In this document: positions 5,452-50,917 of the stretch, one piece after another
How positions within the stretch are numbered: position 1 is the stretch's first letter
Layout of the letters: each line of letters opens with the position of its first letter
Virus record (IMG/VR): IMGVR_UViG_3300014208_000024
Location: 288,001-352,000 of that record
Source: a virus
Lineage: Duplodnaviria; Caudoviricetes
Length of the DNA: 64,000 bases
Strand: one strand, 5' to 3'
Program-made: the position numbers and the translations under genes
The notes under the pieces: generated by a model
Database searches by the model: none
What the model saw: the letters and a program-made list of their open reading frames with translations, nothing else
What the model was told of the DNA's origin: nothing

Positions 5452-5916
5452 ATGAAAGTAACAAATACAGGTGCAAAAGGAAAATGGGTTCACGTTAAAA
5501 TAAACGGATATTCGTATAAAAAATGGGTCGCAGCATATGGCTCTGTAACTTTACCAGAAGTTACAAGCAGAAGCCAGCTTAACCTAAATGCACACGAAGA
5601 ATCAATGATTCACGCAGAAGATCATGGACAAATTTTTCCAAAACCAATACCCCCAGAGTTTTATTATACAATTAATGCAACAAGACTTGGAACAACAGGT
5701 GGAACAACTTCTTTAAGCGCATCATCTGTTTCAGTGGCAAAAGGAATGAGCTTATCATTCTCAGTTTATCCAGAATCCAACTATTATCTTTCAGCTTATA
5801 CAGTTAATGGTATTGCTCAAGGAAGATCTACTCCATCTGCAACAACAGTTTATACACTGTCAAACATTGTGCAAGACGAAAATATTTCTGTTGCATTTGC
5901 AACATTTGGCTCTTAA
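5452..5916 (+). CDS. Putative virion protein with a C-terminal InlB B-repeat-like beta domain
   Basis: YTINAT...G.TS...SVAKG..SFSVYPESNY.LSAYTVNG...YTLSNI..DENISVAF pattern; TATTTATA upstream. Confidence 0.55.
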   Translation: MKVTNTGAKGKWVHVKINGYSYKKWVAAYGSVTLPEVTSRSQLNLNAHEESMIHAEDHGQIFPKPIPPEFYYTINATRLGTTGGTTSLSASSVSVAKGMSLSFSVYPESNYYLSAYTVNGIAQGRSTPSATTVYTLSNIVQDENISVAFATFGS

Positions 5917-5942
5917 TATCAACTATATATCCTTGTTTATCA

Positions 5943-44719: not shown

Positions 44720-44756
44720 CTCTCCCTCTTTTTAAAATAATTTGCTTTATATCTAC

Positions 44757-45203
44757 ATGGAAGAAAAAAAAGAAATAGGCATTAGGGCTCCTCTCCCCGA
44801 AATTGATCCCTTAAAAGATGTTACTATTATTGGCGCTGGTCATGTTGGCGTTGGAAAATCTTCTCTCATACAAGTTGAGGCAGCAATAAGAATGATGGCA
44901 GAAGGAAAAAAGGTAATTGTTATCACAGGTGATACAACTCCAAACATTGATCTTTCAAAAATTGATTTGGATAGCATTTCAATTCCTGTTTTAAAAAAGA
45001 TAAGTGAATTTCCAAGTCCAGTAATTTACGACCATGATACTCCAAACAAATTGGAAATGTTAAGGAATTTAAAACTTTCTCCTGAGCAAATTGATTACTT
45101 CCAAAATTCACCACCACAAAGATTGGAAGGGGAAAAACAAGAAGATTATAAAACTCGTAGAATGTTAAATAAATTAATTATAAAATATAGGGGGCAATTC
45201 TAA
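44757..45203 (+). CDS. Hypothetical protein with a nucleotide-binding-like loop
   Basis: IIGAGHVGVGKSS; start ATG 44757. Confidence 0.55.
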   Translation: MEEKKEIGIRAPLPEIDPLKDVTIIGAGHVGVGKSSLIQVEAAIRMMAEGKKVIVITGDTTPNIDLSKIDLDSISIPVLKKISEFPSPVIYDHDTPNKLEMLRNLKLSPEQIDYFQNSPPQRLEGEKQEDYKTRRMLNKLIIKYRGQF

Positions 45204-45346
45204 TGATTCTATTAAATAACAGTCAAAGTTTATTGCAACTTCCTGTGGAATATGCTTATTTTGTAGGTATTTTAATCGTTTTATTTTTAATTGGATTGCC
45301 TATAAGAATTTGGCTTTACAGAAGAAAGACAGGAAAAAATCAATAG
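45203..45346 (+). CDS. 47-aa single-TM protein (not in ORF track)
   Basis: TAATG coupling; FVGILIVLFLIGLPIRIWL followed by a basic tail. Confidence 0.55.
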   Translation: MILLNNSQSLLQLPVEYAYFVGILIVLFLIGLPIRIWLYRRKTGKNQ

Positions 45347-45384
45347 TTCTTCCACTTTTTTAAAAAATTTGCTTTATATAGTTG

Positions 45385-45775
45385 TAACAAAAAAAACGGG
45401 TTATCCGTATAAAATATTGGGAAAGGGTCGCTAAGGTTCCACCCCAAAACTGCGAAAGCGGTTCCGCAATGCCCAAAGCTTGCTTTATGGGAACCACCGA
45501 CAGCCCGTCCCAAAGGTTCATTGAGAATATAAAAAAATCTCCTATAACAGCCGAGTACGGTTGGTTGGAAAATGGAGATTCTGTCCGTACAACAGTTTTG
45601 GGATAAATGCTCATAATTAATAATCCCGCCGACATTTGAATGATCGGTTATGCCCCGTATGAAGCCGAGACCCTTAAGTGGCTCTGGCAATGACTGGGGC
45701 GCTAATAATCCTGAATAAAGAGCAATCCCGATGAACCGAAGGGGGGTAGGCAGTTCGCCTGTTCCCTCTTTTTTT
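45385..45775 (+). ncRNA. Candidate large structured ncRNA (~350 nt plus terminator)
   Basis: GC-richer, lacks a credible ORF, sits between a class-1 promoter and a terminator, many complementary segments including a GAAA tetraloop and long-range or pseudoknot pairings. Confidence 0.7.
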
Positions 45776-45830
45776 ATTCCCACTTTTATAAATAATTTGC
45801 TTTATATACTCATAACCAAAAATTAAGGTC

Positions 45831-46031
45831 ATGGAAACAAAAAGTTTAGACAAAAAAAAGAAATCAATAAAAGTAAAAGAAATGTATAAATTTCTTGGGA
45901 AGTTAATTAAAGAAGGAAAAGGCGACTATAAAATGAAAATTGACTTAAATGAATATTATGTAAGTTTAAAACGAATTTCAGTAATTGATGAATCAACTGT
46001 TTGTGAAAACAAAACTATAAATGTTTCATAA
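45831..46031 (+). CDS. Small hypothetical early protein
   Basis: Own promoter. Confidence 0.6.
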   Translation: METKSLDKKKKSIKVKEMYKFLGKLIKEGKGDYKMKIDLNEYYVSLKRISVIDESTVCENKTINVS

Positions 46032-46105: not shown

Positions 46106-46578
46106 ATGGGCTTCACGCACTACTTCTACAGAAAAGAAAAGTTAGATCAGAAAACATTTGATCTCTTTGTTAAAGATGTAAAAGCAATCTTCGCTGATAC
46201 CAAAAGGCAAAAAAGAATTGCAATAGTTAACGGCTGGGGTGAAATGGGAACTCAACCAATAGCAAACTCAGAAGAAATTTGTTTCAATGGAGTTCAAAAC
46301 ACAAAAACAAATGTTGACAACAGCCATGAAACAATGTACATTTCACGTGTTGCAAACAAGAGCATTTTTACACCTGATTCCCCCTCGCTTTCGGGTTTTG
46401 CAAAACAGCAAGGAAGCCTTATGACAGGGTTGTAACAGCGGTTCTTATAGCATTTAAACATCATTTTCCTCATGCACAAATTCATTCTGACGGTGATATT
46501 GAAGATTTTGAGCTTGGCCGCAAAACTTGTACAAAACTCTTTGGTTACGGTTTTGGCTTTGAACTTGACAAAGATTAA
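46106..46578 (+). pseudogene. Early gene frameshifted at a C5 run (46380-46384)
   Basis: Adding one C joins ...TPDS to PLAFGFCKTARKPYD.VVTAVLIAFKHHF...SDGD...DKD*. Confidence 0.7.
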
Positions 46579-46775
46579 AAAGATTGGGTTCACCGTTATC
46601 CCCCCCTGGAAAACGGTTTGGTTATGATGGCTCGGAGTGGTTAACCGAGCCTTTTTTATTTTCTTTTTTTAAATTTCGGTTTGGTCGTAAACCCCATATC
46701 CACAATTCTGGTCCAGACAATTCCCACTTTTTCATTTAATTTGCTTTATATAGTCACAAACAAAAAATAATTTAT

Positions 46776-50624: not shown

Positions 50625-50697
50625 TGCAAGGTAGAGCAGTAGTTAGCTTGCGGCGCTCATAACGCCGAGGTCGTCGGTGCAAATCCGACCTTTGCAA
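50625..50697 (+). tRNA. tRNA-Met(CAT), fMet-like; CCA not encoded
   Basis: Cloverleaf TGCAAGG/CTTTGCA, GAGC/GCTT, CGGCG-CTCATAA-CGCCG, GTCGG-TGCAAAT-CCGAC. Confidence 0.9.
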
Positions 50698-50845
50698 CAA
50701 AGAAAAAATAAAAATGAAAGTTAATTTTAACATAGAGGAAAGCGAGGAACGTTTACTGAAAAGTATCCCTGCTAAAACTATGTAAAAGTACTGAAAAAGT
50801 AATTTGAAAAGAGGGATGCGAAAGTTTCCCTCTTTTTTTATTTAT

Positions 50846-50917
50846 GCCCTGTTCGTATAGAAGTCAGTACAACGGTTTTTCAAGCCGTAAAGGAGATAGC
50901 ATAATTCTCACAGGGTA
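50846..50917 (+). tRNA. tRNA-Glu(TTC) with non-canonical T-arm
   Basis: GCCCTGT/ACAGGGT, ACGGT-TTTTCAA-GCCGT, GAGAT-AGCATAA-TTCTC. Confidence 0.75.

Follow-up and report, generated by a model that had tools for sequence, protein, structure and literature searches.

What does a GC-richer block encode in a phage genome when it holds no credible open reading frame (ORF)? This question is raised by positions 45381-45775 on the + strand of the window, by which we mean the whole stretch of 64,000 nucleotides (nt) analysed here, that is bases 288001-352000 of the 372,283-bp virus record IMGVR_UViG_3300014208_000024 (IMG/VR), rated complete by CheckV. A sequence-only reading of this DNA had proposed that the block is a stand-alone, highly structured non-coding RNA with probable pseudoknots, expressed early from its own promoter and ending at its own terminator. 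We observed that the block has homologs on related phage contigs and that many of their substitutions keep the same bases paired; very probably it is a genuine non-coding RNA, structured and conserved, that founds a new family. The full statement that we favour on balance is that of a + strand RNA gene of a new family, whose product acts in trans as a folded particle. What is new is the RNA family and its fold, as represented by four members, and we found no description of this RNA in the literature.

The RNA gene is single-copy in the phage genome and forms a GC island between a promoter box and an intrinsic terminator. Its GC content, as the earlier reading had noticed, is well above that of its surroundings (0.45 over 45400-45800 vs 0.26-0.30 in the flanks). 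Folding of the + strand gave a minimum free energy (MFE) of -124.9 kcal/mol with z = -3.87, and 0 of 100 shuffled sequences folded as well; the - strand of the same stretch gave z = -2.0. The promoter and the terminator that had been announced are both present. The putative cassette promoter region (45350-45380, + strand) contains TTCCAC, a T/A run and the box TTTGCTTTATATA at 45368-45380, and it is the repetition of this box in the window that suggests promoter activity. The terminator (45741-45775, + strand), found by a terminator scan, has an 11-bp stem with its loop at 45741-45767 and a T-run. The next copy of the box lies downstream of the RNA at 45796, and thus the downstream gene has a box of its own.

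Every complementary segment that had been listed by eye in the block does exist at its place. We counted 8 stems of at least 7 bp vs 4.5 ± 2.2 expected, and a perfect stem of at least 10 bp arises in about 10% of dinucleotide shuffles; because such stem counts do not beat the shuffles, the listed helices are not individually significant on one sequence. A single sequence shows a GC-rich, well-folding, ORF-poor cassette and cannot tell which helices are real.

Searches with the RNA itself gave no relatives: blastn in distant mode against 50,697 GenBank phages had no match, exact and degenerate patterns gave 0 matches and no second copy in the viral contigs of IMG/VR and 0 matches in genome contigs, and an 18-mer pattern scan of metagenome contigs returned 26 loci, all of which were chance by blastn. 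The homologs were reached through the protein of 153 amino acids (aa) encoded upstream of the RNA, whose relatives are 40-62% identical and whose contigs carry the RNA homologs. For this protein, tblastn against the same 50,697 GenBank phages had no match, and the neighbouring SEC-C protein and an alignment of the 153-aa family, used as queries, found no relatives in viral contigs. The copies L039 (7830-8200, identical in L040) and L051 (5285-5750) were detected by blastn, the former at 76% identity over window 45511-45627, and L054 (about 5530-5925) by its motifs. All three occupy gaps without called genes on related metagenomic phage contigs. A further contig, L049, ends inside a copy of the L051 type and holds only its 5' part.

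A covariance model, R1, was built on the 5' two-thirds of the part common to the copies. It scored 110.9 bits for the window, 96.6 for L039, 96.1 for L051 and 87.8 for L054, with at most 25 bits elsewhere in 207 kb of related DNA and in the whole phage genome. In each of these four copies, R1 exceeds 80 bits, the helices named below Pb, Pc and the loop-loop helix are paired, and the RNA occupies a gap free of ORFs and has a terminator after it. Two short contigs from fresh water add to this set. X3, a DNA contig of 228 nt, is near-identical to the window RNA and covers 45438-45660. X4, a contig of 173 nt from a metatranscriptome library, is 90-95% alike, covers 45567-45739 and lies wholly within the RNA; its presence in an RNA library is a weak argument for the RNA gene and does not show transcription. 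Neither contig covers the flanks, from which nothing follows.

On the R1 alignment, 90.6% of the cells of the proposed pairs are paired. Changes on both sides of a pair occur in 11 of the 24 pairs, compared with a mean of 5.6 in shuffled alignments, none of which (0/500) reached 11; when the structures were slid by 1-3 columns, only 1-4 pairs had changes on both sides. These changes are found in Pb (4/7 pairs), Pc (5/7) and the loop-loop helix (2/6), and none in Pd. In the loop-loop helix, of whose cells 95.8% are paired, A-U has given way to G-C at two positions at once in both L039 and L051. Pb and Pc were also recovered, with eight compensated pairs, by RNAalifold on a MAFFT alignment with no structure imposed. 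Covariation across the copies extends to the two outer pairs of Pa (GC/GC/AU/AU and GC/AU/GU/GC). About ten cells are G-U on the + strand and would be C-A mismatches on the opposite one, so that the + strand is to be taken as the RNA. The covariation sought by the earlier reading among homologs is present; with four sequences from one neighbour family, it looks convincing for Pb, Pc and the loop-loop helix and only suggestive elsewhere.

A clean alignment of the four copies begins just before 45515, runs to 45605 and resumes at 45725-45737. From this alignment, the shared core of about 120 nt is predicted to consist of Pa, an A-rich strand, the Pb-Pc arm, Pd, and Pe with an insert of 13-120 nt, all on the + strand. 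Pa, the closing stem of the core (45515-45522 with 45730-45737), is present in all four copies. The A-rich joining strand GAGAAUAUAAAAA (45523-45535) leads from Pa to Pb and is conserved in sequence and variable in length; X3 has one substitution and five extra letters within it. Pb (45536-45542 with 45574-45580) and Pc (45548-45554 with 45561-45567), both supported by covariation, are separated by an internal loop, UAUAA / GAAAAU. Pc carries the loop GUACGG (45555-45560), and the change C45551U in X3 retains its pair as U-G. The hairpin Pd (CUGU/ACAG, 45581-45584 with 45592-45595) has the loop CCGUACA; its stem shows no covariation and is uncertain. Six bases of this loop (45585-45590) would pair with the whole Pc loop (45555-45560) to form a kissing loop of six pairs, and this is the loop-loop helix for which covariation was seen. 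After the linker UUUU (45596-45599) comes Pe (45600-45604 with 45725-45729), invariant except for a U-G pair in L051, then a bulge AAA and Pe2 (45608-45612 with 45720-45724), which varies in sequence and is paired in all four copies. The variable insert (45613-45719) has two hairpins in the window, and the changes of X4 cluster there. The distance between the Pe strands is 120, 98, 13 and 53 nt in the four copies, and the core is shortest, at 120 nt, in L051. The joints Pb/Pd and Pe/Pa have no linker; the strands therefore have the topology of a four-way junction with two stacked helix pairs.

This anatomy revises several of the pairings that had been proposed by eye. The homologs support AATCTCC/GGAGATT, GGGAT..TGCTC/GAGCA.ATCCC, and GTACGG/CCGTAC, the latter being the Pc-Pd loop-loop helix. 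GGTTCAT/ATGAACC is a real stem in the homologs as well; it had been called a crossing helix and turns out to be nested, as the closing stem of the core. CAGCCG-AGTA-CGGTTG was drawn in the wrong register, for covariation gives CAGCCGA/UUGGUUG with the loop GUACGG, and the drawn hairpin is incompatible with GTACGG/CCGTAC. The 10-bp pairing of CCCAAAACTG with CAGTTTTGGG (45443-45452/45593-45602) is not conserved: the homologs lack its 5' strand, and its 3' strand is made up of the invariant linker and Pe. We also dropped it as a helix of the window RNA, as forcing it costs about 10 kcal/mol and as Pe and the GAAA hairpin compete with it. The proposed pseudoknot AAGGGTC/GACCCTT has its strands in two lineage-specific domains and is not conserved; five of the changes of X4 fall in the GACCCTT loop. 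Of the probable pseudoknots, there thus remains at least one tertiary pairing, between the two loops, with AAGGGTC/GACCCTT absent in homologs and GGTTCAT/ATGAACC nested.

Outside the core, the copies differ. The window RNA begins with a 5' leader (45381-45416, + strand), in which a small hairpin ACGG/CCGU (45396-45408) has a pair probability of 0.98 and is followed by the motif CGUAUAAAAUAUU (45406-45418); the form CGUAUAARRUAUU of this motif is common to the window, L039, L051 and L049. The variable 5' domain (45417-45513, + strand; pair probabilities 0.82-0.97) is closed by P1 (45417-45422 with 45508-45513) around a three-way junction with GGUUCC/GGAACC, a GAAA-capped hairpin and a second hairpin. 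P1 ends just 5' of Pa in the window and in L039, where it is kept by two double changes (UUGGGA/UCCCAA to UUGAAA/UUUCAA), and the inner helices of the domain are lineage-specific. ACTGC-GAAA-GCGGT, GGTTCC/GGAACC and GCCCC/GGGGC, also listed in the earlier reading, sit in such lineage-specific domains; as predicted structures, the 5'-domain hairpins and GCCCC/GGGGC are plausible (pair probabilities 0.95-1.0). Leader and 5' domain together measure 134, 92, 301 and 189 nt in the four copies, and their sequences are unrelated. At the 3' side, all four copies have a strong hairpin with a U-run 2-6 nt past Pa, at -17.7 to -25.3 kcal/mol. We also observed a boxA-like element, (G/A)UUCUUU, at the 5' start of the homologs (L051:5295-5303, L049 about 9790, L054:5534-5541, L039:7846-7853). 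It precedes CGUAUAARRUAUU in three of them, and the window copy has diverged at that spot. This element may serve antitermination of an untranslated transcript.

The genes on either side of the RNA vary between loci, which marks the RNA as an autonomous cassette rather than a leader. With its homologs in ORF-free gaps, it agrees with the stand-alone, ORF-less structured RNA gene that had been proposed. The RNA is absent from the syntenic relatives L036, L042, L046, L052 and L058; such patchy presence is usual for accessory take-over genes. All members of the family seen so far belong to one clade of T4-like jumbo phages, uncultivated, of groundwater and fresh water. In one of the relatives lacking the RNA, a similar slot (L036:6755-6926, also L038:5875-6046) is occupied by an ORF-free gap of 215 nt with 47-49% GC, GC-rich hairpins and a terminator; R1 has no match there, and the gap may hold a different small RNA.

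How such an RNA would work is the more tentative part of our proposal: binding or assembly in trans is possible, and we put it forward with less than even confidence. As a folded particle, the RNA would exert its effect in trans. The junction strands, which do not vary, and the invariant sequences of Pa and Pe would offer a specific surface for a protein partner, as a scaffold or a decoy in host take-over; alternatively, the same invariant parts and the complementary loops could serve self-assembly. The variable domains would be lineage-specific decoration. We favour a scaffold or decoy, or self-assembly, because the junction strands and two helices are fixed in sequence and not merely in pairing, because the peripheral domains vary freely and because the gene behaves as an accessory take-over cassette. 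Catalysis or ligand sensing is not needed to explain the data, although the RNA may have either. The Pc and Pd loops are fully complementary, and in either sequence variant they include a tetramer, GUAC or UGCA, that is complementary to itself. Pairing of the loops within one molecule would require the Pb-Pc arm to fold back at the internal loop, and from geometry a Pb of 7 bp and a Pc of 7 bp would fit; covariation cannot separate this from pairing between molecules.

Several points weigh against the full statement. Only four full sequences are available, all reached via one neighbouring protein family, and range and statistics are thin. Pa, Pe and Pd are almost invariant, and their pairing rests mostly on complementarity. 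The analysis yielded no partner protein, and no gene is consistently adjacent among the loci. Moreover, invariant junction nucleotides with a variable periphery also resemble the core of a ribozyme. The RNA could also work without any protein, by RNA-only assembly through Pc/Pd loops pairing between molecules (dimers or cages like those of ROOL and GOLLD) or as an early-made decoy or sponge that captures a defence protein of the host or a small signalling molecule. We regard this as unlikely; if true, it would make a new functional class of phage RNA.

A rival reading is that the RNA is a ribozyme. The four-way junction and the loop-loop clamp would then be a catalytic core, self-cleaving or other, which the 5' domain and the Pe insert would stabilise from the periphery, much as happens in group I introns and RNase P. 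The invariant sequences of the junction strands, Pa and Pe next to peripheral domains of 13-300 nt that vary freely would suit such a core, as would a tertiary loop-loop helix kept by covariation. However, none of the four diverged members matches a ribozyme of Rfam 15 at E <= 10, the loci show no flanking exons or repeat context, and no signature such as the hammerhead CUGANGA core was seen by eye in the window RNA; a ribozyme seems to us unlikely. Junctions combined with kissing loops are a design typical of aptamers (purine, lysine, SAM-I), and the same fold could be imagined as a ligand-sensing read-through switch, with the core as the aptamer and the terminator past Pa as the expression platform that gates transcription from the upstream cassettes into the downstream ones. 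The terminator does stand directly after the closing stem in all four copies, and the stretch from the upstream 47-aa gene to the RNA showed no terminator hairpin. Against such gating, the downstream gene has its own promoter box and differs between loci, no conserved antiterminator pairing of Pa or the linker with the terminator was seen by eye, riboswitches do not usually have 5' domains so large and variable, and no Rfam aptamer matches. We hold this switch to be improbable.

A link to the Ro60/Rsr protein of the phage itself was also considered, the RNA being then another partner of the Y RNA type. The phage encodes a TROVE-domain protein (E = 5e-19; Pfam), the DNA immediately upstream of its gene contains an RNA candidate bearing a tRNA-like T-arm, and the strand topology of the core is cloverleaf-like. 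In the window RNA, however, the 5' and 3' ends are unpaired in the MFE and centroid structures and form no terminal stem, no T-loop of the UUCGA type occurs in its sequence, blastn-short against the rest of the genome, including the Ro60-adjacent RNA, found only A-runs in common, and Rfam gave no YrlA or Y RNA match. In addition, the RNA lies 250 kb from the Ro60 gene, which has its own adjoining RNA candidate, and this role appears very unlikely. Membership, as a diverged form, in a known large class (RNase P, transfer-messenger RNA (tmRNA), group I or II introns, GOLLD, ROOL, OLE, raiA or HEARO) is highly improbable. Rfam 15, whose scope covers all these classes as well as riboswitches and small ribozymes, matched only two tRNAs in the whole window at the gathering score; over 45250-45900, at E <= 10, it gave only four chance-level matches to small RNAs and small nucleolar RNAs (E 0.39-6.7), far below the gathering score, and no match at E <= 5 in the homolog RNA regions of L040, L051 and L054. 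ARAGORN found one tRNA-Met and no tmRNA in the window. The earlier reading, which saw no signature of RNase P, tmRNA or group I/II introns and named a known Rfam hit as a refutation, is borne out on this point. The segment GGAAAGGGUC and its partner GACCCUUAAG bear some resemblance to the P4 strands of RNase P; RNase P was rejected, as this pair lies in variable domains and is absent from the homologs and the helix topology does not fit. Finally, the conserved feature might be a minus-strand protein of 147 aa (45340-45783), whose open frame spans the whole block, or an element acting at the DNA level. The sole match of this frame among 5.8 billion clusters is itself, in the contig L008, which at 99.84% identity is the same phage and hence an uninformative copy; a HMMER search of 1.84 billion protein representatives found nothing but itself, and Pfam had no match. 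In the homologs the frame is closed, and the longest stop-free stretches are 68-81 aa, on varying strand and frame. The substitutions are pairwise compensating, with G-U pairs that work only on the + strand. We therefore rejected the 147-aa gene and treat the frame as a chance ORF, in agreement with the earlier statement that the block has no credible ORF; a conserved protein or DNA element here is close to out of the question.

To our knowledge, large structured RNAs with a conserved tertiary fold are rare, and nearly every class that has been solved is a ribozyme, a ligand sensor, a scaffold of a ribonucleoprotein or an RNA-only assembly. The window RNA has partial likenesses to several known systems; in lifestyle it comes nearest to GOLLD and ROOL and to the T4 RNAs rnaC and rnaD, in architecture to aptamers that combine a junction with a kissing loop. 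Like GOLLD and ROOL, which are large phage-associated, stand-alone and ORF-less non-coding RNAs of several hundred nt and of unknown function (10.1101/2024.12.08.627333), the window RNA lies near tRNA genes (at 5 kb), and its complementary loops could in principle join molecules, as in the multimers of GOLLD and ROOL. It differs from them in having no Rfam match, a smaller size with a conserved part of about 120 nt, and another helix layout. The RNAs rnaC and rnaD of phage T4 (species 1 and 2) are likewise small, stable, ORF-less RNAs of a T4-type phage, with no known role; these lie inside a tRNA cluster, whereas the window RNA has its own promoter-terminator cassette. With filters off, R1 scored at best 10.8 bits (E 1.1) on T4 (NC_000866, 68500-74500), at a position that is neither rnaC nor rnaD. 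As to YrlA and the Y RNAs, a Ro60 gene with a tRNA-like RNA exists in the same phage and the order of helices and linkers in the core is tRNA-like, but the window RNA has no terminal stem, T-loop or shared sequence and lies 250 kb away from Ro60. In the purine, lysine and SAM-I riboswitches, as in the window RNA, several helices meet in a junction that a helix between two loops, or between a loop and a strand, locks in place, and a terminator comes right after the closing stem; the window RNA is set apart by a promoter of its own, by downstream genes that are not conserved, by 5' domains that are large and variable and by the lack of an Rfam hit. The Pc loop would be fully paired, its six bases all engaged by the partner loop, as in the kissing loops of the human immunodeficiency virus type 1 (HIV-1) dimerization initiation site (DIS) and of the trans-activation response element pair TAR-TAR*, with the difference that the window loops are 25 nt apart in one molecule. 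A large survey of viral structured RNAs (10,000 viral RNAs) kept motifs of at most 151 nt with at least three IMG/VR regions. The RNA described here is open to tests, since it offers a compact core supported by covariation, natural minimal and expanded versions, and its own promoter and terminator in a take-over region of giant phages.

The genome in which the RNA lies has 28.7% GC, and near-identical DNA is present in two groundwater sequencing runs, whereas runs X5-X7 contain almost none of the query words. The large terminase of the phage shares about 30% identity with its counterparts in T4-like myoviruses (Flavobacterium, Microcystis and Campylobacter phages), which would place this groundwater jumbo phage among distant T4-like myoviruses. 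Relatives with a terminase 79% identical are available only as fragments of at most 53 kb, and the RNA is absent from these fragments. Short cassettes, all with the box TTTGCTTTATATA in front, make up much of the window; the box has 63 copies in the window vs 0.5 expected. Genome-wide, TTTGCTTTA occurs in 67 copies on the + strand that share a flanking consensus, and the consensus of the promoter region reads TTCCCAC-T5-(C)AAATAA-TTTGCTTTATATA. The core of the box, (A/T)3-TGCTTTA, found at 45368-45376 and at about 60 other sites, is the consensus of the T4 MotA box of middle promoters (PMC2988021), and the -10-like element of the cassette box is not at the T4 spacing. A Pfam search of the phage for the MotA C-terminal domain had no match, and the positive control was equally silent, so that this negative carries no weight. 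As the box is common to more than 60 small-ORF cassettes and its core is that of the middle-promoter MotA box, expression of the RNA, which had been read as early, may have another timing. No reverse transcriptase gene was found in the phage.

Other genes and islands of the same phage are worth recording. The TROVE/Ro60 (Rsr) gene lies outside the window at G000:C1:83259-84852 on the - strand. At about 84900-85030 on the same strand, some 50-190 nt upstream of its start codon, an ORF-free stretch contains the canonical T-arm UUGG-UUCGACU-CCAA and a terminator; from these features it is probably a YrlA-like Y RNA. With a Ro60 gene and an RNA candidate in the same genome, this phage lineage may rely unusually on RNA-based functions. 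Also outside the window, an island of 443 nt (G000:C1:140598-141040) reaches 60% GC in a 200-nt window about 3 kb from the terminase gene, and has no Rfam match at E <= 0.1. Within the window, the two tRNAs called by Rfam lie at 50625-50917 (59.7 and 35.5 bits); ARAGORN calls only the first, and in the cmscan alignment the T-arm of the second is aberrant.

Among the neighbouring proteins, the 153-aa protein (44742-45203) belongs to a family (P0003-P0024) with a variable N-terminal half and a near-invariant C-terminal stretch of about 55 residues (...PNKLQLL...EDYKTRRMLNKL...), and has no match in Pfam. A link of this protein to NTPases or SRP54-like proteins was dropped, as the motif resembling a Walker-A/P-loop is not conserved in the family. 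Downstream of the RNA, an ORF of 109 aa (46106-46435) belongs to a family whose members are otherwise 150-156 aa long (L051:4773-5243, L049:9265-9735, L042:8514-8966). The C-terminal part that it lacks seems to be encoded further on, in a different frame, up to about 46587; this suggests that the region 46106-46590 holds a frameshifted gene or a sequencing error.

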